Source: Thermotogota bacterium (GTDB taxonomy: Bacteria; Thermotogota; Thermotogae; Petrotogales; Petrotogaceae). Taken from it: a DNA stretch of 24,778 nt. A program made the position numbers and the translations under genes. Shown in pieces: positions 3,225 to 24,222 of the stretch (position 1 is the stretch's first letter; every line of letters starts with the position of its first letter). The stretch is from contig JBNJGY010000029.1 of NCBI GenBank assembly GCA_051748045.1, forward strand, positions 1-24,778. The letters run 5' to 3'. Below the pieces are notes generated by a model that was not told the DNA's origin, did not search any database, and saw nothing but the letters and a program-made list of their open reading frames with translations.

Positions 3225-4112
3225 CTATTGTTGTAAATGATTGTTTATAAAAATTTCTATCAAATCATCAAAATTTATTCCATATGCTTTAGCTGAGAAA
3301 GGAAGATCACTTAGTTTTGTCATTCCTGGTACAGTATTTACTTCTAATATATATATTTCATTATTTTTGATAATTAAGTCTATTCTGAGCATATCTCTGA
3401 AAGTCAATATATCATTTAAAATATTAAAAATATTCTTAAACTCATTATCATATTTTTTATGTATATCTTTATTTATTTTTAGTTCAGATTTTCCTTCAGT
3501 GTATTTTGCTATATAATCATAAAATTCATTTTTTGGAATTATTTCTAGTAAAGGAAGAATAATAAATTTTCCTTTATTTTCTATTATTGATAAAGTAAAT
3601 TCTCTTCCTTCTATATATTCTTGAATTAATACATCTCCAAAAAATTCTAAATTTTGCTTTAAATATTTATTATAATCTTCTTTATTATGAACTATATATA
3701 CTCCTTTACTAGAACCGCCTTTTCTTGGTTTTAGAACTAAAGGGAAATCAAAAGGGTTATCAACATACTCATTTACTTTTATTATTTTTGGTATTTTTAT
3801 TTTTTTATAAAAAAGCTTATAAAATAAATATTTATCAAAACAAACACTACATGTTTCTGATGGAGAAGAAGTATATTTTTTATTGAATAAATCTAAATAT
3901 CCTTGAATTTTACCGTCTTCACCATATTCACCATGAATCATGTTCAAAATTAAATCTTTATCTATTATCTTTTCATGAAGATTAATATCAGAACTTTCGA
4001 ATACTTCATATTCGACATTTAATTTTTTTAAACTATTTTCTGCATTTTCTAAACTCCTAAGTGAAATTTCTTTTTCCTTAGAATTGCCTCCATAGATTAC
4101 ACCTATTTTCAA
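3225..4112 (-). CDS. ddl: D-alanine--D-alanine ligase
   Basis: GG-x-S-x-E-x-EISL-x-S, HG-x-x-GEDG-x-IQG, KP-x-x-GGSS-x-GV, FYDY-x-AKY and LEVNTVPGMT. TTG start overlaps the topA stop. Confidence 0.93.
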   Translation of the reverse strand: MKIGVIYGGNSKEKEISLRSLENAENSLKKLNVEYEVFESSDINLHEKIIDKDLILNMIHGEYGEDGKIQGYLDLFNKKYTSSPSETCSVCFDKYLFYKLFYKKIKIPKIIKVNEYVDNPFDFPLVLKPRKGGSSKGVYIVHNKEDYNKYLKQNLEFFGDVLIQEYIEGREFTLSIIENKGKFIILPLLEIIPKNEFYDYIAKYTEGKSELKINKDIHKKYDNEFKNIFNILNDILTFRDMLRIDLIIKNNEIYILEVNTVPGMTKLSDLPFSAKAYGINFDDLIEIFINNHLQQ

Positions 4113-6370
4113 TCTTCTTCTATCTCCTCTTTGTCAAAAAATGCTTTTGTTTTAGGATTATATAATTTTTCTTCTTTTTGTTTAAATTTGTAGAATAAAG
4201 GGTCACCAGTATCTGGGTCATTGTACCCAGAAGGTTCATTCCAGAACATTTCTCCACAGTCTTTATTTGTACATTTAAAATATATCTTTCCTTTTTTGCT
4301 TTTATTTTTTCCAACTTCTGAACCACAGATAGGGCAATTACCTCTTGCTGGAACAGATTTTGTAAATTTACAATCTGGATAGTTTGAACAAGCAATAAAT
4401 TCTCCAAATCTTCCTTTTTTAAGAACCAGTTCGGATCCACATTTTGGACACTTTTCTCCAATCTCAACATTGTTATTTTCTTTAAAGTCTTTTAAGAATT
4501 CAGAGATATGTAATTTATTATTTAAAGTTATTCCATATGCATAAAATGGAATTTTTTGAGTTTCTTTACATTTTTCTTCGTCACAAGCTAAATAAAAACC
4601 ATATCTTCCAAATTTTAATTCCATATTTTTATCGCATTTCGAGCATTTAACATCACTTTCATAGTTTATATCTAAATTCTCTTCTTTAATTTTTTTCTCA
4701 GCTTGATCCAAAAATTCGCTAAAGTCTTCATAGAACTCATTCAATACTTTTGTTGAACTATTTTCGCCTTCTTCAATTTCATCTAAATCTTTTTCCATTC
4801 TAGCAGTAAATTTTATATCTACTATTTCAGGGAAATTATTTTCTATAAAGTCATTTACTATGAAGCCTGCTATAGTGGGTCTTAAATATTTTTTTTCAAA
4901 TTTATTAACGTATTTTCTGTTTATTAAAGTACTTATTATGGTTGAATAAGTTGATGGTCTTCCTACACCATTTGATTCTAATTCTTTTACTATTGTTGCT
5001 TCAGAAAATCTTGCAGGCGGAGTAGTTTCTTTTTGTTCAGTTTTTAAATATTTTTTATCCACTATTTCACTATTAGACATTTCAAATTCAACTTCTGAGT
5101 TTCCATACTTCCAGAATTTTTCAAAACCATCAAAAATTCTTTTTTTAGATGTTATTTCAAAATCATATTTTTTATTTTCATCAGATATAATATATTTGGT
5201 TTCATCATAAACAGATGAAGATGTTTGAGAAGCCATAAATCTATTCCAAATTAATTTATATAGTTTTAGATAATCGCCTTTTAATAATGAATTAGATTTT
5301 TTATCATCTATAAAGATATTAGTGGGTCTTATAGCTTCATGAGCATCTTGAGTTTTTTGTTTTGTTTTCTTTTGTGAATATTTACCAGAATATTTTTCTC
5401 CAAAATTATCTTTTAAATATTTTTTTGCAGCATTTTGAGCATCAGCGGATATTCTTGTTGAATCTGTTCTCATATATGTAATGAATGCTATGTGTCCTTC
5501 AGAAGTATCCATTCCTTCATAAAGTTTTTGAGCTATTTGCATAGTTTTTTTTGAGGTCCAACCTAAGTAGTTTATTGCTGCTTGCTGAAGAGTACTTGTT
5601 ATAAAAGGAGTTGGTTGTTTTCTTTTATTTTTCTTTGTTTTTGTATCTTTTAAAGATATTTCTTTTCCTTTTAAATAGTCTATAATATAATCTTTTTTAT
5701 CTTTATCTATATTTTCTTGTTTTAGTCTTTTTCCATCTTCTCTCACCAATGGAATTTTTTGCTCTTTGTAATCTAGAAAAATTTTGAAAAATTCTTTTGG
5801 TTTAAATTTAAAGATTTCTCTTTCTCTATCTATCATTACTTTTAATGCTGCTGATTGTACTCTTCCTGCGCTTGTTTTATAATTTTTCAAAACTTTCCAT
5901 ACTAAAGGACTTACTTTGTATCCAACAACTCTGTCTAAAATTCTTCTTGCTAATTGGGCATCTACTTTATTCAAATCGATTTTTTGTGGTTCTTGTACAG
6001 ATTCATTTATTGTATTTTTGGTTATTTCAGAAAAAATTATTCTGTTATTTTCTTCTTCTTTTAATTTCAAAATATTAGCCAAGTGCCAAGCTATAGCTTC
6101 ACCTTCTCTATCCATATCAGAAGCTAATAAAACTTTTTTGTTTTTAACTTTCTTTTTTATTTCAGTAATAACTTTTTTCTTACCTGGCATTATTTCAAAT
6201 TCAGGTTCAAAGTTATTTTCTAAATCAACCCCAAAAGATTTTTTAGGTAGATCTCTAATATGTCCTTTAGAGGCTATTACCTCATAGTCTTTTCCTAAAT
6301 ACCTTTCTATTGTTTTTGCTTTGGCTGGAGATTCTACTATTACTACATATTTTGAATTTTTAGCTGGCAT
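4109..6370 (-). CDS. topA: DNA topoisomerase I (type IA) with C-terminal C4 zinc ribbons
   Basis: IVESPAKAKTI, GHIRDLP, D-x-DREGEAIAWH, SAGRVQS, catalytic ITYMRTDS, QDAHEAIRPT, GVGRPSTY and three C-x2-C...C-x4/5-C ribbons. Confidence 0.98.
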   Translation of the reverse strand: MPAKNSKYVVIVESPAKAKTIERYLGKDYEVIASKGHIRDLPKKSFGVDLENNFEPEFEIMPGKKKVITEIKKKVKNKKVLLASDMDREGEAIAWHLANILKLKEEENNRIIFSEITKNTINESVQEPQKIDLNKVDAQLARRILDRVVGYKVSPLVWKVLKNYKTSAGRVQSAALKVMIDREREIFKFKPKEFFKIFLDYKEQKIPLVREDGKRLKQENIDKDKKDYIIDYLKGKEISLKDTKTKKNKRKQPTPFITSTLQQAAINYLGWTSKKTMQIAQKLYEGMDTSEGHIAFITYMRTDSTRISADAQNAAKKYLKDNFGEKYSGKYSQKKTKQKTQDAHEAIRPTNIFIDDKKSNSLLKGDYLKLYKLIWNRFMASQTSSSVYDETKYIISDENKKYDFEITSKKRIFDGFEKFWKYGNSEVEFEMSNSEIVDKKYLKTEQKETTPPARFSEATIVKELESNGVGRPSTYSTIISTLINRKYVNKFEKKYLRPTIAGFIVNDFIENNFPEIVDIKFTARMEKDLDEIEEGENSSTKVLNEFYEDFSEFLDQAEKKIKEENLDINYESDVKCSKCDKNMELKFGRYGFYLACDEEKCKETQKIPFYAYGITLNNKLHISEFLKDFKENNNVEIGEKCPKCGSELVLKKGRFGEFIACSNYPDCKFTKSVPARGNCPICGSEVGKNKSKKGKIYFKCTNKDCGEMFWNEPSGYNDPDTGDPLFYKFKQKEEKLYNPKTKAFFDKEEIEED

Positions 6371-12823: not shown

Positions 12824-13555
12824 ATGATTGGAGATAGAACAATAAAACTTTATAGTATAGATTCAACAAATGCTTATTTAAAAAGAAATTATAAAGAGTT
12901 CCCTTCTGAAACTGTTGTTGTTGCAAAAAAACAAACAGATGGTTATGGAAGAAGAGGGAATTCTTGGGTGTCAGATTATGGAGGACTTTGGTATTCAACT
13001 CTTTTTAAACCACTTAAAAGGCCAATGAATCCTTGGCATTATGTTAGAATATTTTCTTTAGCGATATATGACACACTTGAAAAATATAGTATAAAGTCCA
13101 AAATAAAATGGCCTAATGATATTCTTGTAGATGATAAAAAAATATGTGGTATTGCATCAGAAGGAATTATCAAAGGGAAAAAACCTGAGGCTATTATTGT
13201 TGGTATTGGAATGAATGTCAACAACGACATCCCTGATGAATTAAAAGATGTTGCTATATCTTTAAAACAGTTAATAAAAAGAGAAGTAAAAATTGATAAG
13301 TTGCTATATGAAATAAATCATAGGGCTTACAATTCTTATTATGTGAAATATTTAAAAGATAAATCTGTTTCCATAATAACAAAAAAATGGTTAGAGAGAT
13401 TAAATATTTCCAAAGGTGATATGGTAAATATAAAATTCAGTGATAATATAGAAACAGCAAAGATTCTAGATATTACTCCAGATTATGTTTTAGTTTTAGA
13501 TAAAAATAATAATGAAAAAAAATTATATGCAGGTGATATAAGCATTAAGAAATAA
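12824..13555 (+). CDS. birA: Biotin--[acetyl-CoA carboxylase] ligase, class I (no N-terminal HTH)
   Basis: IDSTN, QT-x-G-x-GR-x-G-x-x-W-x-S, KWPNDI, KKICGI, GIGMNVN and C-terminal AGDIS. No DNA-binding domain. Confidence 0.92.
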   Translation: MIGDRTIKLYSIDSTNAYLKRNYKEFPSETVVVAKKQTDGYGRRGNSWVSDYGGLWYSTLFKPLKRPMNPWHYVRIFSLAIYDTLEKYSIKSKIKWPNDILVDDKKICGIASEGIIKGKKPEAIIVGIGMNVNNDIPDELKDVAISLKQLIKREVKIDKLLYEINHRAYNSYYVKYLKDKSVSIITKKWLERLNISKGDMVNIKFSDNIETAKILDITPDYVLVLDKNNNEKKLYAGDISIKK

Positions 13556-14097: not shown

Positions 14098-14931
14098 ATG
14101 TCATTTAATATGGAAGAATATGTATCTAAAGTCAAAAGTGCTGCTGAATATTTAAAAGAAAATATTGATATACAACCAGATATAGCAATTGTTTTAGGAA
14201 GTGGATTACAAGGTATTTCAGAATCTCTAGAAGATCCAAAAGCTATTTCTTATGATGAAATACCAAATTTCCCTGTTTCTACAGCTCCAGGTCATAAAGG
14301 TGAAATGATATTTGGTAAGATAAAGAATAAAAACGTTATGTTAATGAATGGTAGATTTCACTATTACGAAGGATATTCTATGAAAGAAGTAACATTTCCT
14401 ATTAGAGTCATGCAAGAAATTGGGATAAAAACATTTATTGTAACTAATGCAGCAGGTGGAATGAATCCTAATTTTGAAAAAGGTAAACCATGTCTTATTA
14501 CAGATCAAATTAACTTCTTTGGAGATAATCCGTTATTGGGAGAAAACAATGAAAAATGGGGACCTAGATTCCCTGATATGAGTGAAGTTTTTTCAAAGAG
14601 ATTAAGAGATTTAGCAATAAAGGCTGCTAAAAATGTTGGAGAACAAATTTTTACTGGGGTTTACTTAGGTATTACAGGACCTACTTTTGAAACACCTGCA
14701 GAATTAAAAATGATGAGAAACTTTGGTGCAGATTTAGTTGGTATGTCTACAGTCCCAGAGGTAATTGTTGCTAGACACGCTGGAATGGAAATATTAGGGT
14801 TTTCAGCCATAACTGATATGGCTATAGCTGAAGGTTTAGAAGAAGTAACTGCTGATGATGTTATAGCTGTAGCAAATAAAACTGGTGAAAAAATAGCAGC
14901 TATTATTATGGAGTTAATTGAAAATATTTAA
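14098..14931 (+). CDS. punA: Purine nucleoside phosphorylase, trimeric (PNP I/XapA-type) family
   Basis: VLGSGL, IPNFP-x-ST-x-PGH-x-G, GRFHYYEGY, TNAAGG, GPRFPDMS, GP-x-FETPAE and GADLVGMSTVPEV. Confidence 0.93.
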   Translation: MSFNMEEYVSKVKSAAEYLKENIDIQPDIAIVLGSGLQGISESLEDPKAISYDEIPNFPVSTAPGHKGEMIFGKIKNKNVMLMNGRFHYYEGYSMKEVTFPIRVMQEIGIKTFIVTNAAGGMNPNFEKGKPCLITDQINFFGDNPLLGENNEKWGPRFPDMSEVFSKRLRDLAIKAAKNVGEQIFTGVYLGITGPTFETPAELKMMRNFGADLVGMSTVPEVIVARHAGMEILGFSAITDMAIAEGLEEVTADDVIAVANKTGEKIAAIIMELIENI

Positions 14932-14947
14932 ATTTAGATAAAATCAT

Positions 14948-14989
14948 GATACAATAGAAAAAATTTCTATTGTATCTTGTTTTTGTTTT
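14948..14989 (+). terminator. Intrinsic terminator after PNP
   Basis: 13-bp stem GATACAATAGAAA / TTTCTATTGTATC with a 3-nt loop, followed by TTGTTTTTGTTTT. Confidence 0.65.
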
Positions 14990-15002
14990 GGAGGGTTAAT
15001 TG

Positions 15003-15986
15003 ATGAAAAAAATATTCATCATAATTTATATCTTACTTATTTATATAATTTCTTTTTCTTACTTATCTGAATATAATCTTTTCTTTAAAAAACCAGGAAC
15101 ATTTTTTGATTATTCTTTTAATACTAATAAAGAATTAAGTATATCATTAGGTATAGTTGATAAATATAAAGTTATGGATTCTAAAGAAATTTTAAAAACA
15201 GTATGGTCACAAGAAAGAGATTTAATAGGTGGGCAATTACAAGTTGAATCAAGTTATTATACTCACGCAATATCTAGTTCAAATGCGCTTGGTTTATTAC
15301 AAATGAAATATATGACAGCTGAAGATTTGTATGTATATAACTTGTTCGATCCTTTTGATAATCTAAAAGGCGCTTTAGAATACCATGGCTATCTAAGAAG
15401 GTTATTCGGAGAAGAAAAAAAACAAATAGCTGCTTATCATGACGGGCCAGGAGCAATACAAAGAGCTGGAATGACTGAATCGGGCGAATTATACTATTTA
15501 AAAGTGAAAAAAGCTCAAAATAATTATCAAAATACAAGTATTTATTCACCTCAAGTATATGGAGTTAATTTAGATTTTTTAGGTGACGAAATAAATACTA
15601 ATTTTTATTATAATATTGCTTATAGAAAAATGGAATTATATACTCAATTAAATGCTAATATTTCAAAAAATAATGGTATAATAAATAGTGAAATGGGTTT
15701 GGAATATTCATTTTTGTATTATCCAAGGACTAATTTTGCTTATGGAATTAACAATTTGAATGGAGTTATTAGATTGGGGTTACCTTGGGAATTTTTTGTA
15801 TTAAAATTTAATAAAGAAAGTCAATTTTATTTCCAGAAGATAATTGGAGATAATTTTGTAATTAAAACAGATATAAAAAACAATTCTGCATACTTTGGTG
15901 CAGGTTTTCTTATTTATAATATAAAAAGCATGTTAGGGTATGAATTATTTGATAAAACATTATCTTTTGAAGTTCAAATTTATTGA
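15003..15986 (+). CDS. Exported lytic transglycosylase (SLT domain) flanked by amphipathic beta-strand regions
   Basis: Signal peptide (MKKIFIIIYILLIYIISFS). SLT motifs QVESS (catalytic Glu, codon 15246), A-x-S-x-x-x-ALGLLQ-x-x-x-x-TA, LFDP-x-x-N and AAYHDGPG. C-terminal half has alternating-hydrophobic strands ending LSFEVQIY. ATG 15003 preferred by RBS spacing. Confidence 0.8.
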   Translation: MKKIFIIIYILLIYIISFSYLSEYNLFFKKPGTFFDYSFNTNKELSISLGIVDKYKVMDSKEILKTVWSQERDLIGGQLQVESSYYTHAISSSNALGLLQMKYMTAEDLYVYNLFDPFDNLKGALEYHGYLRRLFGEEKKQIAAYHDGPGAIQRAGMTESGELYYLKVKKAQNNYQNTSIYSPQVYGVNLDFLGDEINTNFYYNIAYRKMELYTQLNANISKNNGIINSEMGLEYSFLYYPRTNFAYGINNLNGVIRLGLPWEFFVLKFNKESQFYFQKIIGDNFVIKTDIKNNSAYFGAGFLIYNIKSMLGYELFDKTLSFEVQIY

Positions 15987-16001
15987 GAGGGGTTATTTTG
16001 A

Positions 16002-17549
16002 ATGGGTGAAATTATTGAAAGAATAAAAGAATGGTGGAATAGCCAAACAAAAAATAGAAAAACAATTTATATTTCAATAGCTTCTGCCATATTGCTAATA
16101 ATAATAATTACTGTGATTCTTTCAACAAGAATTACTTATAAATTCTTGATGGGCGGAGTTACAGAGGCTAATGGCGGTAGAATAATAACCACTTTAGACG
16201 AAATGGGTATTAAATACAATATCAGACCATCAGGATCTATTTATGTTGACTATAACAATGTAGAAGAATTAAGAATGAGGTTAGCTACTCAAGGTGTTCT
16301 TGGAGGTACAAATCAAGGATACGAGTTACTCCAAAACCAAGGATTTGGTGCAACAAGTTATGATAAACAAGTTAATTACCAAATAGCCTTAGAAGGAGAA
16401 TTATCTAATACTATTTCATCAATAAGTGGTGTTCAATTTGCAAAAGTTCATCTTGTTATTCCACCTAGAACTTATTATCAAGTTGATGAAAATTCTGTAG
16501 CTAAAGCTTCTGTTTTATTAATGCTAGATAATAATTATAGGATGAAAGATGAGCAAATAAGAGGTATAGTTAATTTTTTAACAGGATCCGTTCAAGGGCT
16601 TACTTCCGAAAATGTTAAAGTAGTCGATAATTTCTCAAATAATCTTACTGACCAAATAGGTAGTTCAGAAGTTGGTAGTGCAGATACTAAATTTAAATTA
16701 AAGACTCAAATAGAAGATTACTATTCAAAAAAAGTTGAACAAAATCTACAATCTGTTTTTGGTCTAGGAAATGTAGTTGTTATATCTGAAATAAATTTAG
16801 ATTGGGAGAAATTAGAGGAAGAATCTAGACAGGTTGAACCAGTTGTTGATGAAGATGGAATAATACTTTCACAGCAAACTCAATCAGAAAGCTCTTCTTC
16901 AGGAGGGGAAGGTCAAGCACCTGGAACAACATCTAACATACCTCCTTTTACATATGAAACAGAAGAAAGTACAGGAGATTATTATAGCAGCAGTAATACA
17001 ATAACGAATTATGATGTTAATGAAATATACAGAAAGACTGTTCAAGATAAAAGTGGAGATATTTCAAATAAGAGTATCACAGTATTTATTGATTTTGCCA
17101 ATGCAAATATAACTGAAACAGATGAGTTGAGGACTCAAATTAATAAAGCCGTTTCAACAGCTGTCGGAACAATGGATCAAAATATAACTGTTTTATCAAT
17201 GGCATTTAACAGAGCTGCAGAAACTCAAAGAGCCCAATATGAACAAGACATACAAGAAAGAAATAAGAGAATTATTATGGTTATAACAATAATAATTGCT
17301 ATTGTTTTAATTACTTTCTTATTATATATTTTCACAAGAATTATTAAAAAGAGAAGAACATTCAAATTTATTGAAGAAAGAAAAAGAAAACTTGAAAATA
17401 GAGTTCAAGAAATAGTATCAGAAGGTGAAGAAGAAGAAATAGAAGAATATACACCTTCTCAAGAAGCGCAAAGAAAATTAGAAGATATTGTAAAGAAAAG
17501 ACCTGACGATGTTGCTGAAATTTTAAAATTATGGTTAAACTCCAAATGA
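16002..17549 (+). CDS. fliF: Flagellar MS-ring protein FliF
   Basis: Two TM segments, GYELL-x-x-x-x-FGAT, ALEGEL-x-x-TI, AKVHL-x-IP, ASVLL, ENV-x-VVD, G-x-x-PGT-x-SN, NY-x-V and C-terminal P-x-x-VA-x-ILK-x-WL. Confidence 0.96.
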   Translation: MGEIIERIKEWWNSQTKNRKTIYISIASAILLIIIITVILSTRITYKFLMGGVTEANGGRIITTLDEMGIKYNIRPSGSIYVDYNNVEELRMRLATQGVLGGTNQGYELLQNQGFGATSYDKQVNYQIALEGELSNTISSISGVQFAKVHLVIPPRTYYQVDENSVAKASVLLMLDNNYRMKDEQIRGIVNFLTGSVQGLTSENVKVVDNFSNNLTDQIGSSEVGSADTKFKLKTQIEDYYSKKVEQNLQSVFGLGNVVVISEINLDWEKLEEESRQVEPVVDEDGIILSQQTQSESSSSGGEGQAPGTTSNIPPFTYETEESTGDYYSSSNTITNYDVNEIYRKTVQDKSGDISNKSITVFIDFANANITETDELRTQINKAVSTAVGTMDQNITVLSMAFNRAAETQRAQYEQDIQERNKRIIMVITIIIAIVLITFLLYIFTRIIKKRRTFKFIEERKRKLENRVQEIVSEGEEEEIEEYTPSQEAQRKLEDIVKKRPDDVAEILKLWLNSK

Positions 17550-17562
17550 GGAGAGATTAAAA

Positions 17563-18573
17563 ATGGCTGACAAAAATGAATTAAATGGAATTAAAAAATC
17601 TGCTATTTTATTAGTATTAATGGGACCTGAGAATGCGGGTAATATTTTGCAAAAATTAGATGATGATGATGTAGAACAACTTACTTTAGAAGTTGCTAAT
17701 TTAGATAGTGTGAATGAAGATTTAAAAGAATCAGTAATGAACGAATTTTTTGAGTATGCAAAAGTAAAAGAATTTATAAATAAGGGTGGAGTAGATTATG
17801 CTAAACAACTATTAGAAAAAGCATTTGGCCCTGAAAAAGCGATGGAAATAATTGAAAAATTAGTTTCAAATTTACAAGTGAAACCTTTTGATTTCCTAAG
17901 AAAGGTTGATATAACTCAAATGGTTAATGTTCTACAAAATGAACATCCTCAAACCGTTGCTCTTGTATTATGTTATTTACCACCAAATACTTCATCCCAA
18001 ATAATAGCAAATTTACCTGAATCGTTTCAAGTAGATGTAATTAAAAGAATTTCTGTTATGAATTCCGCTACACCTGATATTGTAAAAGAAGTAGAATCAA
18101 AAATGAAAGATAGACTTTCTTCTTTTACAGTTCAAACATTTTCTCAAGTTGGTGGAATTGAAGTATCAGCTGAAATTATGAATAGTATTGATAGAGTTGT
18201 AAGTAAAAACATTTTTGATAGATTATCAGAAAGAGATCCTAAATTATCTGAAGAGATTAGAAAGAGAATGTTTGTCTTTGAAGATATTATTAAACTAGAT
18301 GATAGAGCAGTTCAAAGGGTACTTAGAGAAGTCGATCAAAAAGATCTTACTTTGAGCTTAAAAGGTGCTTCAGAAGAAGTTAAAGATATTATTTTCAAGA
18401 ACATGTCTAATAGAGCTTCACAGATTATAAAAGAAGAACTAGAATTTATGGGTCCTGTTAGGGTAAAAGATGTAGATGAAGCTCAACAACGTATAGTTTC
18501 TGAAATTAGAAAACTTGAAGAATCCGGTGAAATTATAATTTCCGGAGGAGGAGGAGAAGAGTTAATTGTTTAA
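17563..18573 (+). CDS. fliG: Flagellar motor switch protein FliG
   Basis: K-x-AILL, GG-x-x-YA, EHPQT-x-AL, GG linker, MFVFED, NMS-x-RA, MGPVR-x-x-DV-x-x-AQ. Confidence 0.97.
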   Translation: MADKNELNGIKKSAILLVLMGPENAGNILQKLDDDDVEQLTLEVANLDSVNEDLKESVMNEFFEYAKVKEFINKGGVDYAKQLLEKAFGPEKAMEIIEKLVSNLQVKPFDFLRKVDITQMVNVLQNEHPQTVALVLCYLPPNTSSQIIANLPESFQVDVIKRISVMNSATPDIVKEVESKMKDRLSSFTVQTFSQVGGIEVSAEIMNSIDRVVSKNIFDRLSERDPKLSEEIRKRMFVFEDIIKLDDRAVQRVLREVDQKDLTLSLKGASEEVKDIIFKNMSNRASQIIKEELEFMGPVRVKDVDEAQQRIVSEIRKLEESGEIIISGGGGEELIV

Positions 18574-19267
18574 TAAAAGAATAATTAACAACAAATTTGT
18601 AGTTCTTGATTCTCCTATTGAAATAAATAATGAAGAATTAAATCATTTTGATGATGAAAGAGATGACATAAGTGAAGAAATAATTAAAAAAATTGAAGAA
18701 GCAAATAAAAAATCTGATTCTATTATTGCAGAAGCAAACCAAAAAGCTGATGAAATAATAAAAAAAGCTAAAAAACAAGCTGATGAAATGTTTGAGAGTA
18801 AAAAGCAAGAAATAAAAAAAGAATTTGAAGAAAAATATGAAAACCATCTAAATATTTTGAAGGAAAGTATTTCTGAAAATTTAGAGAATGTTCAATCCCA
18901 AATAGACTATTTTATTGACAACACTAACGAATTCTCAGTAACAGCTATAAAAATTATTATTAAAAAATACCTTGAAAATGAAATCTTCAATAAACCCCAA
19001 TGGGTTAATGTTATATTACATAAGCTTAGAAACAAATTAAGCACCTATAAAAAAGTATTATTAAAAATGAATTCAAAAATGTCTGATAAATATGGCCATA
19101 TTTTTGAAGATATGATGTCAGATTCTTTTATAATAAAAGAAGATAACTCCTTAAAAGAAAATGAAATTACTGTAGAAACAGAAATGGGGGCTTATGAATT
19201 AGAACCTGAATCATATATAGAAGACATTATGGAATCCTTAGAGGAGTCTTTCAATGAAGACGATTAA
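18566..19267 (+). CDS. fliH: Flagellar export apparatus protein FliH
   Basis: Lies between fliG and fliI with overlapping ends, has an N-terminal coiled coil and a C-terminal D-x-x-L-x-x-x-x-x-x-VETE-x-G motif. Divergent sequence. Confidence 0.75.
   Translation: MFNKRIINNKFVVLDSPIEINNEELNHFDDERDDISEEIIKKIEEANKKSDSIIAEANQKADEIIKKAKKQADEMFESKKQEIKKEFEEKYENHLNILKESISENLENVQSQIDYFIDNTNEFSVTAIKIIIKKYLENEIFNKPQWVNVILHKLRNKLSTYKKVLLKMNSKMSDKYGHIFEDMMSDSFIIKEDNSLKENEITVETEMGAYELEPESYIEDIMESLEESFNEDD
18695..18793 (+). repeat. Three imperfect 33-nt (11-aa) tandem repeats within fliH
   Basis: EEANKKSDSII / AEANQKADEII / KKAKKQADEMF, with repeated gaagcaaa and aagctgatgaaat DNA words. Confidence 0.55.
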
Positions 19268-20585
19268 TTATAAAAAAATAATCGATAATTTTCAAGAAAA
19301 AATTGAAGAAAAACCTTATCTTTCATTAGAAGGAAAAGTATCTAGAATAATTGGTGTAACCATAGAATCTACTGGCCCAGATTCAGCAGTAGGAGATTTA
19401 TGTAAAATAAAATTAAAAAATAACAAAGATGCTTTGGCTGAAACAGTAGGCTTTTCTGACAATAAAGTTTTACTAATGCCTTTTGAAGATATTAGTGGGC
19501 TTTATGTTGGGGCGCCAGTTAAAAAAGTAGGACACAACGTCACCATAAAGGCAGATGAATCAATTTTAGGTCATGTATTAGATGGGTTAGGAAGACCAAT
19601 AGATGATCTTAGATTTAATCCTAAAGAAAATGTAAAATTATACAATGATCCTCCAAATCCTTTAACAAGAAAAAAGATTGAAGAGCCAATATCAGTAGGA
19701 GTTAGAGCTATAGACGGAATGCTTACTCTTGGAAAAGGTCAGAGAATTAGTATTATGGCAGGTAGTGGTGTTGGGAAAAGTACATTACTTGGTATGATTG
19801 CAAGAAATACTGAAGCAGATATAAACATAATAGGACTAATTGGAGAAAGAGGAAGAGAAGTAAGAGAGTTTATTGAGAGAGACTTGGGAGAAGAAGGGTT
19901 AAAAAAATCTATTGTAATTGTATCTACATCTGATCAACCAGCATTAATGAGAGTAAAAGCTTTATTAACTGCTACAGCTTTAAGTGAATATTTTAGAGAC
20001 AAAGGCCATAATGTTATGTTAATGGTAGATTCTTTAACAAGATGGGCTATGGCTCAAAGAGAGATAGGGTTATCAATAGGCGAACCTCCTGCAACAAGAG
20101 GATACACTCCAAGTGTTTTTGCCAATTTACCTAAAATTCTTGAAAGAGCTGGAAACTCAGAAAAAGGAAATATGACAGCTATATATACTGTTCTTGTAGA
20201 AGCTGATGATATTAATGATCCAATTGGAGATACAGTTAGAGGAATAGTTGATGGTCACGTAGTATTATCAAGGAAACTAGCTGATTCAGCTCATTATCCT
20301 GCTATTGAAATTCTTGGAAGTATTTCCAGGTTGATGACAACAGTTGCCTCAGAAGAACATATAGAAGCTGCAAGAAATATCAAAGAAATCTATGCGGTTT
20401 ATCAAGATGCTAAAGATTTAATAGATGTTGGAGCTTATAAAAAAGGATCAAATCCAAAAATTGACAAATCTATTGAACATATTGAAGAAATTAATGATTT
20501 TCTTACTCAATTGACTAACGAAAAAATAACTTATTCTGAAACCATTGAGAAAATGATTTCAATAAACAATAAGATAAAAAATTAA
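19254..20585 (+). CDS. fliI: Flagellum-specific export ATPase FliI
   Basis: Walker A AGSGVGKSTLLGMIAR, LIGERGREVREF, DSLTR-x-AMAQREI, GEPP-x-x-RGY-x-PSVF and DGH-x-VLSR, in fliFGH context. Confidence 0.96.
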   Translation: MKTINYKKIIDNFQEKIEEKPYLSLEGKVSRIIGVTIESTGPDSAVGDLCKIKLKNNKDALAETVGFSDNKVLLMPFEDISGLYVGAPVKKVGHNVTIKADESILGHVLDGLGRPIDDLRFNPKENVKLYNDPPNPLTRKKIEEPISVGVRAIDGMLTLGKGQRISIMAGSGVGKSTLLGMIARNTEADINIIGLIGERGREVREFIERDLGEEGLKKSIVIVSTSDQPALMRVKALLTATALSEYFRDKGHNVMLMVDSLTRWAMAQREIGLSIGEPPATRGYTPSVFANLPKILERAGNSEKGNMTAIYTVLVEADDINDPIGDTVRGIVDGHVVLSRKLADSAHYPAIEILGSISRLMTTVASEEHIEAARNIKEIYAVYQDAKDLIDVGAYKKGSNPKIDKSIEHIEEINDFLTQLTNEKITYSETIEKMISINNKIKN

Positions 20586-20611
20586 AATATTAAAACTTGG
20601 GGGTCAGTTTA

Positions 20612-21976
20612 ATGGGTATACCTGCAGAATACGCAATTCTTTTAATCGCTTTCGCGATAATCGTAATCCTATTGGTTTTAAAAAGAGTATTAAGGACTAC
20701 TTTAAAACCTTCTAATTATAGAAAAGCTAGAGAAAGCATAACAGCTTATCTATATTTGTTACCAGCCTTTGTAGTTCTTTCAATCTTTATATTTTGGCCA
20801 GTTTTTTATTCATTTTTTCTCAGTTTCTTTAAATGGGATTTCCAAACTCAAGGGAACCCTATTTTCATTGGAATTCAAAATTATACAAAACTTTTTCAAT
20901 TAAATCATCCTATTGAAATGTCTTTTGATGTTGCTTTTTTTAATACCATTTTGGTTTTAATGTTTTTCATTTTCTTAATGCACTTCCTTTTAGATATGAA
21001 AAAAATAAAAGAAAAAATCTATAAAAAATCTATAACAATTGGTGTTGTTATAGGATTAGTAGGTATAATCTTTACTAATATAATGTCAATATTTGGTATA
21101 ATATCTTCTTTGATATTACTTGGTATTTATACTGTATTATTAGCTAAAAAATTCATTTACAAAAATCCTGATAAATTAATGGCTAGATTATTTATTTTTG
21201 CTGGGGTTATTGCATTCACTAGAATACTTGGCGTAAATGAAATATTTGCATATATTTCTCAAGCAAAACAAGAAGCTGATTTTATAAAAGCATTATGGAA
21301 TACTGCTTATTATGTACTTTTATCAACACCTATAACAATTTTCTTGGCTTTAATAATAGCTATGCTCTTAAACAATCAAATAAAAGGTAAAACTGTTTTT
21401 AGAACAGTTTATTTTATTCCTTTTGTAACAAGTGTAGTTGCAGTATCCCTTGTTTGGCAATGGATTTTTAATGATAATGGTTTACTAAACTATATTTTGT
21501 CTATGTTTGGAATAGATAGGCTTTTATGGTTAAAAGATGAAGCATATACAATACCAACAATCGCAATAATATCTATTTGGAAACTTGTTGGTTATTATTC
21601 TGTTATATTTTTATCTGGATTACAGAATATTGATAGAAGTTATTATGAAGCAGCAGAAGTTGATGGTGCAAGTTTTATGCAGAAATTTAAATTTATTACT
21701 TGGCCATTATTATCCCCTACAACATTTTTCATATTGATTGTTTCTATGATAAATGCTTTTAAGGTTTTCTCAGAAATATTTGTTCTTTATTCTGGAATGC
21801 CTGGACCATATAATAATAGCGGATTAACAGTTGTTTATTATATTTATGATAAATTTTATAGTCAACAACGAATGGGACAAGCTAGCGCCGCTGCTTATGT
21901 ATTATTCGGAGTTATATTGCTATTTACTTTTGTTCAACTTAAAGCAGGTAAAAAAAGAGTCCATTACGATTCATAA
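20612..21976 (+). CDS. Carbohydrate ABC transporter permease (MalF/UgpA-type) with extra TM helices
   Basis: AYLYLLPA...WP, FIG-x-x-NY, ALWNT, FRT-x-YFIP, GLLN, EAA loop LQ-x-I-x-x-x-YYEAAEVDGA, F-x-x-IT-x-PLL-x-PT. ATG 20612 chosen by the GGGGG RBS. Confidence 0.9.
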   Translation: MGIPAEYAILLIAFAIIVILLVLKRVLRTTLKPSNYRKARESITAYLYLLPAFVVLSIFIFWPVFYSFFLSFFKWDFQTQGNPIFIGIQNYTKLFQLNHPIEMSFDVAFFNTILVLMFFIFLMHFLLDMKKIKEKIYKKSITIGVVIGLVGIIFTNIMSIFGIISSLILLGIYTVLLAKKFIYKNPDKLMARLFIFAGVIAFTRILGVNEIFAYISQAKQEADFIKALWNTAYYVLLSTPITIFLALIIAMLLNNQIKGKTVFRTVYFIPFVTSVVAVSLVWQWIFNDNGLLNYILSMFGIDRLLWLKDEAYTIPTIAIISIWKLVGYYSVIFLSGLQNIDRSYYEAAEVDGASFMQKFKFITWPLLSPTTFFILIVSMINAFKVFSEIFVLYSGMPGPYNNSGLTVVYYIYDKFYSQQRMGQASAAAYVLFGVILLFTFVQLKAGKKRVHYDS

Positions 21977-21987
21977 GGGGGATATAG

Positions 21988-24222
21988 ATGACTTATTCAA
22001 ATTTTTTAAAAATTATAACTAAAATAATTATATATATATTAGTAGCTGGTGGAGCTTTTATAATGATTTTACCATTCGCTTGGATGATAATGACATCATT
22101 AAAAACAGATGGAGAAGTCAATTCTTGGCCGCCAACTTGGACATCAAAGAATTTTCTGTCAGAAAGAGAACTAAATATGGAACTTTCCACTTCCACAATA
22201 TCATCAAGAGGAACATTGAATTTATCTGAATTTAGATCAATATCTAGAAATAAAGAATTTGATAAAAATAAAATTGTTTATTATATAAATGATGATGATG
22301 TGATGAGAGGACAATTTTTAATAGATTTTGGAAATGTTGACTATGCATCAGAAGATTCATTAAATAAACTGTACAATGAAATTGAAAACTTAAAATCAAA
22401 TTTAGATTTAGATCCAAATCTTGTATCTTATATGCGATACGATGAAGAAAATGTCAAAAATTTTGAAAAAATATATTTTAATCTATTTTCAAATAGCAAT
22501 GGTTTTTTCAAGAAAACTAATATAGGAAATTCCATAAAAAATAATATTACTTCATCAATTCGATTCATAGATAATATGTTAGAAAATAATATAGATAGAT
22601 TACCATATCTAAGAGTAAACAACAATACACCAGAAACTCAAAAAGAATATATCGAAAGTAGAAAAGAGTACCTAAGAAAATATCTTAATAAATTAAAAGA
22701 TGAGTTACAAGAAATGAATGATTATGTTACTGAAAACGCAAAAGGTTTAGGACTCATTTCAGATAATGAGGCTCAGAATTACATATCATTAATGAATGAA
22801 TATTTATCTTTGCAAGAAAATTTTGAAGAAGACGATATACTTTATAGAACAAATGCTTTATTAAATAATAATTTAATATCACCATTTATTACAAACTTTA
22901 ATTCTTTAACAGTTTTTAATAGGCTGACGAATGCTATAGATAATATTCAAAACGAAGAAGTTCAAAATTTAAGCCTATCTGTTAAAATACCAACATCTGA
23001 AATGATGTATGAGAATTTTATAAATGATTTTAAACAGAGTAATTTTGATGAAGAATTGAAAGAAATGGTTATGCGAGTAGTTTCTGAATCAAATATAAAA
23101 TTTTTAAAAGATGTTATTACTACTGAAATTGAAAGTACAATTATAGAAGAAATATCATCAAATTTAGCTGATCAGGGTTCAAACGTTTCCGTATATGCAA
23201 ATATACTGAGAAGCTTATCTGAAAATGAAGCTAATTTAGATAACTATAATTATGTGTTATCTTCAAGTAATTCAAACTTTTTAGATTCTCAATTATCAGA
23301 AAAAAGAGATGAACTACAAAGAATTCTAAATTTAAGAAAAAAATATGATAATTTTATTGGTGAATTTTCAGATTTTTATGGAGAATCAACTAGTATAACT
23401 AAAATAATTGAGGGTCATGAATTAGTAGAAAAAGTATTATTTAAAGAAAACTCAAAAATTGAAGTTCATTTAAATGGAATAATATCAACTTGGATGCTTG
23501 ATGAAATTCCTAATGTAAAAGTAGAATTTTCATTTTCTGAAATTTTTAAGAATATTTTCCAGAATTACGTAACAGCATGGAATGCAGCTCCCTTTTCTCA
23601 ATATTATGTCAATACAGTTTTCATGGCAACAACAACAACAATATTCGAAATTATAATAGCAAGTATGGCTGCATTTGCTTTTGCAAAATTGAAATTTTGG
23701 GGTAAAAATGTCATTTTTACCATATTCTTAGCTACCATGATGGTTCCAGGAGAAGTATTGCTAGTACCTAATTACATAACAATATCAAGATTTCAATGGA
23801 TAGATAGTTACTATGCTTTAATTGTTCCTTGGGTTGTTAGCGTATTTGCTATATTTCTTTTGAGACAGCAATTTATGACAGTTCCAAACGATCTTTGGGA
23901 TGCAGCTAAAATAGATGGTTCATCATCTTGGAGATTTTTATGGACAGTAATGGTTCCACTAAGCAAACCTGCTCTTTTAACAGGAGCTTTATTAAAATTT
24001 GTAGGTTCATGGAACGCATTCTTATGGGTATTAATTGTAACTAAGAGTCCAGAAATGAGAACATTAGCTGTTGGATTGCAGACATTTAGAAGTGAATCTG
24101 GTGAAATCTATAATTTATTAATGGCAGCATCAACATTTTCGATGATTCCAATAGTTATAATTTTTATTGTTTTACAAAGATATTTTGTTGAAGGAATTGC
24201 AAAAAGTGGTTTGAAGGGATAA
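21988..24222 (+). CDS. Carbohydrate ABC transporter permease (MalG/UgpE-type) with ~470-aa extracytoplasmic insertion
   Basis: N-terminal LPF-x-WM-x-x-TSLK...PP, then a long soluble insert, then FQNY...NT, AAFAFAK-x-x-F-x-GK, TMMVP, FLLRQ-x-F and the EAA loop DAAKIDG, WN-x-F-x-W and LQRYFVEGI-x-x-SGLKG. Confidence 0.9.
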   Translation: MTYSNFLKIITKIIIYILVAGGAFIMILPFAWMIMTSLKTDGEVNSWPPTWTSKNFLSERELNMELSTSTISSRGTLNLSEFRSISRNKEFDKNKIVYYINDDDVMRGQFLIDFGNVDYASEDSLNKLYNEIENLKSNLDLDPNLVSYMRYDEENVKNFEKIYFNLFSNSNGFFKKTNIGNSIKNNITSSIRFIDNMLENNIDRLPYLRVNNNTPETQKEYIESRKEYLRKYLNKLKDELQEMNDYVTENAKGLGLISDNEAQNYISLMNEYLSLQENFEEDDILYRTNALLNNNLISPFITNFNSLTVFNRLTNAIDNIQNEEVQNLSLSVKIPTSEMMYENFINDFKQSNFDEELKEMVMRVVSESNIKFLKDVITTEIESTIIEEISSNLADQGSNVSVYANILRSLSENEANLDNYNYVLSSSNSNFLDSQLSEKRDELQRILNLRKKYDNFIGEFSDFYGESTSITKIIEGHELVEKVLFKENSKIEVHLNGIISTWMLDEIPNVKVEFSFSEIFKNIFQNYVTAWNAAPFSQYYVNTVFMATTTTIFEIIIASMAAFAFAKLKFWGKNVIFTIFLATMMVPGEVLLVPNYITISRFQWIDSYYALIVPWVVSVFAIFLLRQQFMTVPNDLWDAAKIDGSSSWRFLWTVMVPLSKPALLTGALLKFVGSWNAFLWVLIVTKSPEMRTLAVGLQTFRSESGEIYNLLMAASTFSMIPIVIIFIVLQRYFVEGIAKSGLKG

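Follow-up and report, generated by a model that had tools for sequence, protein, structure and literature searches.

What kind of protein is encoded immediately in front of fliF in a Thermotogota bacterium of the Petrotogaceae, and would it serve the flagellum or the envelope at large? The question is raised by a window of 24,778 nucleotides (the whole stretch of DNA that was analysed: GenBank assembly GCA_051748045.1, contig JBNJGY010000029.1, positions 1 to 24,778 of the forward strand), in which a gene at 15003 to 15986 had been read, from the letters and their open reading frames (hereafter the sequence-only reading), as a lytic transglycosylase apparently built into an outer-membrane beta-barrel and perhaps concerned with the site where the flagellar rod crosses the envelope. 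Our analysis points to an enzyme domain of the SLT family that is very probably inserted between strands 2 and 3 of a predicted barrel. The explanation of the whole that we favour, with moderate confidence, is that of a wall cutter anchored by its barrel in the toga, facing the periplasm and in this organism likely serving the flagellar rod. The gene and the parts of its product lie as follows:

15003..15986, plus strand: coding sequence of the lytic transglycosylase, predicted to be barrel-anchored (ATG at 15003, TGA at 15984-15986, 327 amino acids plus stop).
15003..15062, plus strand: signal-peptide-like N-terminus, residues 1-20 (MKK, hydrophobic run, S-F-S; predicted local distance difference test score, pLDDT, <50 in the AlphaFold2 model).
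15096..15179, plus strand: first and second strands of the predicted barrel (residues 32-40 and 44-59; DSSP on the AlphaFold2 model).
15180..15536, plus strand: inserted SLT, or family-1 lytic transglycosylase, domain, residues 60-178 (Pfam SLT match at 79-157).
15246..15251, plus strand: codons of the catalytic Glu82-Ser83 (GAA TCA), invariant in 94/94 family members.
15537..15980, plus strand: predicted barrel strands 3-14, residues 179-326 (AlphaFold2; connections of 2-4 residues).

The enzyme domain is the part that known families recognise. The Pfam SLT profile (PF01464) matches it with an E-value of 1.8e-13 and 50.5 bits (cut-off 21.3); besides SLT no Pfam family matches the protein even at E<=1, and the barrel part is covered by no profile. 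In NCBIfam there were MltC and EmtA matches over the catalytic motif, all of them sub-threshold, a sequence search of the PDB gave weak matches to the SLT region only (E of at least 0.044), and in a protein atlas the clusters retrieved, of glucosaminidase and SLT type, scored no higher than 0.80. Homologs in the databases are called 'lytic transglycosylase domain-containing protein' or 'hypothetical protein', and the family is compact (about 290-370 amino acids) and conserved across Thermotogota. The orthologs in Geotoga petraea and Petrotoga mobilis show 79% and 45% identity, respectively. Naming the motifs G-L-x-Q and A-Y-N-x-G as in the available part of PMC8517470, we place them at G97-L-L-Q100 and A144-Y-H-D-G148, with the catalytic pair at E82-S83. 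Among the 94 family sequences compared, E82-S83, S91, A95, G97, Q100, Y145, G148 and Y164 are invariant; within the third motif, AYHDG here, Y145 and G148 thus never change, while position 146 is H in 44 sequences, N in 24 and Y in 21. The compact SLT domain with ES, GLLQ and a variant AYHDG that the sequence-only reading had described is borne out by the profile match and the motif positions, and every motif that it had quoted was located in the protein (PGTFFDYSFNT, KELSISLGIVD, ES, GLLQ, AYHDG and LSFEVQIY). We infer that the inserted domain is a catalytically intact family-1 (SLT/GH23) lytic transglycosylase, its enzymatic products being equally presumptive.

Could such a domain bind the wall rather than cut it? 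A barrel joined to a periplasmic domain that recognises the wall recalls, by a presumed likeness, the tethers of the OmpA or Pal type, in which an outer-layer anchor carries a periplasmic peptidoglycan-recognising domain, and the SLT part could accordingly be imagined as a mainly non-catalytic module that ties the toga to peptidoglycan. We regard this as very improbable. The catalytic pair Glu82-Ser83 and the rest of the active-site motifs are invariant in the 94 sequences, which argues for retained catalysis, and Thermotogota already possess tethers of the SLH and coiled-coil kind (available part of PMC10160955), with two SLH-domain open reading frames, of 331 and 282 amino acids, in the window genome. 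Moreover, in contrast to OmpA and Pal, the periplasmic domain of the window protein would be an enzyme with conserved catalytic residues, and it is inserted within the barrel, not appended to it.

The barrel itself comes from structure prediction. An alignment of the window protein with 27 homologs (A1, 28 rows) was given to AlphaFold2, and the resulting model was compared with solved structures by Foldseek and by an exhaustive VIA search. The model has a mean pLDDT of 74.5 and places exactly 12 strands in residues 179-326, at a pLDDT of about 85-92; the segments PGTFFDYSFNT and KELSISLGIVD map onto its strands at 32-40 and 44-59, and the connections between strands are of 2-4 residues throughout, the one that bears the SLT domain excepted. 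In the VIA search the best match was Omp33 (6gie; Z 16.9, root-mean-square deviation 2.1 A over 164 residues, model range 30-327), followed among membrane barrels by a FadL homologue (Z 16.2), PorV (15.3), TodX (13.9), OmpG (13.4) and CymA (13.2), whereas soluble LolA-like folds reached only Z 7.2-7.3. The matched solved barrels (Omp33, FadL/TodX, OmpG, CymA, PorV), which we take to be 14-stranded, are just 5-13% identical to the protein. The strands alternate hydrophobic or aromatic with polar residues, and the mean 180-degree moment of the dyad hydrophobic alternation, 1.574 against 0.824 +/- 0.165 in within-strand shuffles, was reached by none of 2000 shuffles, an alternation that fits a membrane barrel and a sandwich alike. 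At its C-terminus the protein reads LSFEVQIY, with Tyr327 as the final residue, so the BAM beta-signal-like end that had been noted is indeed present, and 58 of the 94 family members close with F, W or Y. A query with the barrel part only (residues 176-327) returned four close relatives, all with an SLT domain, in a search whose reach was limited by its word index.

An independent model comes from the most divergent branch of the family, f7, in which alignment to the family profile did not extend beyond the N-terminal and SLT parts. From a separate alignment of 27 f7 and f6 sequences (A3) we folded, with AlphaFold2, an f7 member of 366 residues that is about 20% identical to the window protein in the full-family alignment. 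Its model (pLDDT 78.2) comprises a signal helix, one additional short strand (26-29), N-terminal barrel strands at 50-55 and 61-75, an SLT domain at 86-194 with a pLDDT of 80-95, and twelve strands in 200-365. By the VIA search it matches the SLT enzymes Slt (5o2n, Z 14.3), MltF (5aa1, Z 14.2) and MltC (4c5f, Z 14.1), to which its SLT domain is 23-29% identical, and at the same time the 14-stranded barrels CymA (Z 13.8), OmpG (13.6) and a FadL homologue (12.9). Because this divergent ortholog, separately aligned, folds alike, the predicted layout of two strands, SLT domain and twelve strands is a property of the family and not an accident of one model.

Several points weigh against the architecture as predicted. 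The alignments from which the barrel was predicted are shallow, with 28 and 27 rows; none of the Foldseek matches in the PDB reaches E <=0.001; in the protein's own model the core of the SLT domain (residues 67-117) has a pLDDT below 50, and the SLT fold matches of that model reach only Z 7.3 in the VIA search; and 16 of the 94 members, mostly of family f8, end in Lys instead of an aromatic residue. The alternative that these doubts would open is that the beta parts form a soluble domain of the periplasm, perhaps one that binds the wall or a protein, and that barrel closure is an error of AlphaFold. It draws on the same few alignment rows, on Foldseek E-values that are all at least 4.4e-3, on an alternation that would suit sandwiches too, on strand connections that are very short and unlike those of classical porins with their long outer loops, and on the LolA-like matches at Z of about 7. 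We find it improbable, since two independent models of sequences about 20% identical arrive at the same 14-strand layout, membrane barrels lead the VIA matches at Z 13-17, far above the soluble folds, the last residue is aromatic in more than half of the members (58/94), and in family f6 the gene neighbours bamA. Even among the weak Foldseek rows (E of at least 4.4e-3) membrane barrels predominate, and the few unrelated folds that occur there have a low probability. The models therefore support a closure of the first 2 and the last 12 strands into one 14-stranded barrel of the outer-membrane type, not a sandwich. As a prediction, the integral barrel of 2 + 12 strands around the SLT domain proposed by the sequence-only reading holds up (AlphaFold2, and Omp33 in the VIA search), the barrel being closed in the AlphaFold2 models that it had called for; the soluble sandwich that it had named as a refuting outcome did not appear in these models, the membrane barrels standing at Z 13-17 and the LolA-like folds at about 7.

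Where would this barrel reside, and which way would the enzyme face? By inspection of the sequence, the protein begins with MKK, a 15-residue hydrophobic run and S-F-S, and there is no Cys in its first 30 residues, hence no lipobox. The N-terminus looks like a substrate of signal peptidase I. Of the cleavable-type signal peptide that had been described, the charged start, the hydrophobic run and the lack of Cys are therefore seen, and cleavage itself is presumed. A lipoprotein anchor was rejected because the N-terminal region has no Cys, and an inner-membrane anchor through an uncleaved signal was judged unlikely, with only about 12 residues from the hydrophobic run to strand 1. The window genome has an Omp85/BamA match in a 753-residue open reading frame on contig C2, and a search of this genome gave no match to LolA; since BamA is thus encoded, and neither LolA nor a lipobox Cys is found, the barrel may stand in for the lipid anchor of the proteobacterial Mlt enzymes. 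It would sit in the outer envelope layer, the toga. Barrels inserted by BamA usually have their termini in the periplasm. With an even number of strands, the predicted model has both termini and the connection of strands 2 and 3 on one face, so that the SLT domain would lie on the side of the termini, and on the periplasmic side if BamA inserts the barrel in the usual orientation. The periplasmic placement that the sequence-only reading had proposed thus stands as far as the position of the domain between strands 2 and 3, on the side of the termini, is concerned; the periplasm follows from usual BAM topology. The main text of a toga proteome study of T. maritima, its supplements lying outside our scope, does not mention 'transglycosylase', and that lineage appears to be without the gene.

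The other half of the question concerns the neighbours of the gene, which are these:

14948..14976, plus strand: terminator-like hairpin with a 13-base-pair stem and a 3-nucleotide loop, then TTGTTTTTGT; likely transcription-unit boundary.
14990..14995, plus strand: Shine-Dalgarno-like GGAGGG, read from the sequence, 7 nucleotides 5' of the ATG at 15003.
15987..16001, plus strand: spacer of 15 nucleotides with GAGGGG as fliF ribosome-binding site (from the sequence).
16002-17549, plus strand: fliF (Pfam).
17563-18573, plus strand: fliG (Pfam).
18566-19267, plus strand: fliH-like gene (Pfam).
19254-20585, plus strand: fliI (Pfam).

The four flagellar genes are tightly packed (16002..20585). Upstream, the hairpin separates the enzyme gene from a gene of the purine-nucleoside-phosphorylase family, and a terminator scan found no terminator-like site in the 15-nucleotide spacer; between 14000 and 21000 there are 8 such sites, against 2.0 +/- 1.4 in shuffles. 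Gene order, rather than RNA, supports the enzyme gene as the first of a putative fliFGHI unit, and the distance of 15 nucleotides to fliF and the leading position that had been claimed for it agree with the spacer, the Pfam calls and the upstream hairpin. The RNA data were four metatranscriptome runs of one study in the form of contigs, which cannot show transcription or transcript ends. Exact pieces at 15697-15977 occur in one run, and in these four runs no contig lies over 15039-15696. Two further results give joint transcription of the gene with fliF no support: no contig spans the junction at 15986-16002, and two contigs, from two runs, start at 15992 and 15995, that is 7-10 nucleotides 5' of the fliF ATG. 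From these starts (region 15992-16225) one can at most surmise that fliF has a 5' end of its own or that a processing site is present.

Some further signals were seen around the gene. A promoter-like TTTAAA, 17 nucleotides and TACAAT, with an upstream TG (14927-14976), overlaps the left arm of the hairpin, and a transcript from it would miss the full hairpin; this may be a compact junction of terminator and promoter, or chance in AT-rich DNA. At 15885-15904, within the coding sequence and about 80 nucleotides 5' of its stop, there is a weaker stem-loop of terminator type (7 pairs, then TTTTCTTATT). After fliI come two large genes of the ABC-permease family (459 and 744 amino acids; BPD_transp_1) at 20597-24222, so that the flagellar block is fliF to fliI only.

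For a flagellar role, the state of FlgJ is of particular relevance. In the window genome flgH and flgI are followed immediately by a 90-residue FlgJ-like open reading frame, which has a rod-binding match of E 7.4e-4 that falls short of the Pfam cut-off, and the FlgJ predicted for this organism is without a hydrolase domain. The other glycan-cleaving candidates of the genome are a secreted SLT protein of 200 amino acids beside an amylase-like gene and a glucosaminidase-domain protein of 282 amino acids beside a deacetylase-like gene, neither of them near flagellar genes. A complex prediction of residues 22-327 (A1) with the 90-residue FlgJ-like protein (A4), made without controls, scored 0.00 against a mark of 0.32, a score that tells neither for nor against binding. 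Other bacteria whose FlgJ has a single domain use an additional SLT enzyme, which binds FlgJ and makes the opening in the wall, as described for SltF and LTase(Bb) in the available part of PMC8517470. SltF of Rhodobacter sphaeroides, PleA of Caulobacter and LTase(Bb), or BB0259, of Borrelia burgdorferi resemble the window protein in being SLT enzymes with Sec-type export alongside a FlgJ that has no hydrolase domain, and in having a gene that is tied to flagellar genes. By analogy, SltF and LTase(Bb) are its closest functional precedent. They differ from it in that no barrel anchor is described for them in the part of PMC8517470 available, and in that the window family is found in genomes without flagella as well. 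All things considered, a dedicated flagellar function in the window organism is plausible, with the chances about evenly balanced.

How closely, then, does the gene follow the flagellum across the phylum? We surveyed 151 Thermotogota genomes, one per species and the window genome included, with a profile of 14 diverse members (alignment A2), after which loci were fetched and open reading frames extracted; the presence of fliF was scored with PF01514 and the cross-table tallied by hand. A barrel-type open reading frame was found in 96 of the 151 genomes (94 fetched loci, four of them with a doubtful N-terminus, one genome by coordinates and one fragment at a contig end), and is thus phylum-wide. 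Both fliF and the barrel-type gene are present in 87 genomes and neither in 28, with no statistic placed on these counts because the genomes are related. In 45 of the 87 with both, fliF follows the enzyme gene directly and on the same strand (43 adjacencies confirmed with the window FliF as query, 2 by coordinates): 25 of 25 in the family of the window organism, 11 of 17 in f8, 3 of 3 in f11, five in f9 and one in f10. The gap has a median of 15 nucleotides over 43 measured loci and is <=34 nucleotides in 40 of them. In addition, all 25 genomes of f2, a sister family in the same order as the window organism, are without fliF and without the enzyme.

Other counts of the survey weigh against a dedicated flagellar enzyme. 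Of the 151 genomes, 9 without fliF keep the gene intact, it is missing from 27 that do have fliF, and in 42 of the 87 genomes with both it is not beside fliF. The nine comprise four genomes of genus g39 (96-99% complete), four of g27 (96, 96, 96 and 82%) and one that is 74% complete. The g39 genomes also lack FlhA, and their enzyme gene adjoins a DUF177-like/plsX pair that in the related genus g36 flanks fliF; it looks, from this gene order, as though fliFGHI had been deleted there and the enzyme kept. One example is an intact barrel-type enzyme of 324 amino acids at 3460-4434 of locus L044 (genome G127), and L069, L073 and L078 are similar. The 27 genomes with fliF only carry short open reading frames, of 150-230 amino acids, that consist of SLT alone. 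Furthermore, 13 of the 17 genomes of family f6 have the gene 2-3 kilobases upstream of a bamA of the same orientation, the remaining four being on short contigs, and in f7, g34, g42, g43 and g46 it is linked to neither fliF nor bamA. The nine genomes with the enzyme only and the 27 with fliF only show, as far as gene content goes, that across the phylum flagella do not require the enzyme and that the enzyme is not specific to them. The flagellar role suggested by the sequence-only reading therefore finds only partial support as a dedicated one, given these two groups of genomes and the f6 gene near bamA, and the linkage to fliF across Thermotogota that it had wished to see examined holds for the 45 genomes of the 87 and fails for the remainder, including f6.

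Three further observations touch these neighbourhoods. In one f6 genome (G010; locus L047, 2310-3761, minus strand) the enzyme gene is followed by an open reading frame of 141 amino acids with a Cys-rich motif, CHSCNSKVLCGV, and by bamA. In three genomes the fliF beside the enzyme gene appears broken (G074:C11:232617-233140, G131:C1:326293-326821 and G125:C2:291466-291993), being split into two frames in two of them and interrupted by an in-frame TAA in one, which may reflect flagellar genes in decay or assembly errors. A gene of the birA-like biotin-ligase family is found upstream of the fliF region both in the window (12824-13555) and in g45 (L040, 1128-1835), a genome with fliF only in which fliF comes directly after an ABC-ATPase gene and the birA-like gene. 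Such a shared neighbour in the distant, enzyme-less g45 suggests that the neighbourhood is ancient and conserved and has either lost the enzyme gene or acquired it.

The distribution brings forward a different possibility, namely a general housekeeping wall cutter in the toga, for which the position before fliF would be a matter of shared timing or genomic inertia and not of a dedicated flagellar function; its work could be wall turnover, separation of daughter cells, removal of loose glycan strands in the wide periplasm, or the creation of space for any envelope-spanning machine. The intact genes, with invariant catalytic residues, that persist in the nine fliF-less genomes speak for it, as do the absence of the gene from the 27 fliF-bearing genomes, its place near bamA in 13 of the 17 f6 genomes and its being unlinked to either gene in f7, g34, g42, g43 and g46. 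What it does not account for is a tight same-strand linkage to fliF (median 15 nucleotides) kept across five families, the loss of the gene along with flagella in all 25 f2 genomes, and a FlgJ that in the window genome has no hydrolase domain. We hold it to be possible, and the less probable of the two for the window organism.

We hypothesise, for the preferred explanation of a toga-anchored wall cutter, that the protein would be exported by the Sec route and that its 2 + 12 strands would close a 14-stranded barrel in the toga. The SLT domain, in the connection of strands 2 and 3 and facing the periplasm, would then cleave bonds between N-acetylmuramic acid and N-acetylglucosamine from the side of the outer layer, cutting only where the toga approaches the wall to within a few nanometres. 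In the Geotoga-like window genome its most likely job would be to make a passage through the wall for flagellar rod and LP-ring, as SltF, PleA and LTase(Bb) do where FlgJ has a single domain, since the FlgJ-like piece has no hydrolase domain and the enzyme gene is the first before fliFGHI. Across the phylum, because the enzyme is not restricted to flagella, it could be considered a general toga-anchored wall cutter that has been wired to flagellar or BamA expression in several lineages.

The geometry of the envelope is a consideration against such a cutter working freely. According to the available part of PMC10160955, the lateral periplasm of T. maritima measures about 70 nm in cryo-electron tomography, and the toga is separated from a thin wall by fibres of about 50 nm. 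With a spacing of about 50 nm, the wall would be out of reach for a domain fixed within a few nanometres of the toga's underside, except at local contacts, the LP-ring being an example; the measure is the geometry of T. maritima, and T. maritima-like genomes are without the barrel-type protein. This limit on reach might even be put to use. One could imagine a licensing by proximity, in which the enzyme, fixed in the toga, would in a cell whose periplasm is some 50-70 nm wide cut only at nascent envelope-spanning machines and co-translation with FliF would target it to basal bodies. Wall opening would in that case be coupled to the LP-ring and to penetration of the toga, replacing the missing FlgJ hydrolase, and the BamA-linked version would act likewise at sites of outer-layer assembly. 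We put this forward as a speculative idea and consider it doubtful.

Set beside known systems, the protein shows likenesses as well as differences. Members of the SLT family are known as soluble or lipid-anchored enzymes. With Slt70, MltC, MltD and EmtA/MltE of E. coli and MltF of P. aeruginosa it shares the SLT family, the ES pair, the GLxQ motif and the Y and G of the third motif, and the model of its f7 ortholog superposes on Slt, MltF and MltC at Z of about 14; unlike the Slt70 and Mlt enzymes, it has no lipobox, its SLT domain lies within a predicted 14-stranded barrel, and it reads AYHDG for AYNxG. With Omp33 (6gie), FadL/TodX, OmpG, CymA and PorV it shares the predicted fold and the number of strands, at Z 13-17. 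It differs from them in a low identity (5-13%) with no match to their sequence families, in very short loops on both faces, and in an enzyme domain of about 120 residues in the first turn. Literature searches, including ones aimed at this architecture, gave titles and abstracts in which no lytic transglycosylase built into a barrel is described. What we have not found described is hence a known enzyme domain in this anchoring architecture, the location and the activity being predictions.

If this architecture is true, insertion into the turn of a barrel would be a new anchoring solution for lytic transglycosylases, in a phylum that seems, from the lack of a LolA match in the window genome, to have no Lol route for outer-membrane lipoproteins. 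It would also offer a candidate answer to what replaces the FlgJ hydrolase domain in Thermotogota, and to how the flagellar rod and the LP-ring may get through both the wall and, tens of nanometres away from it, a toga rich in protein.

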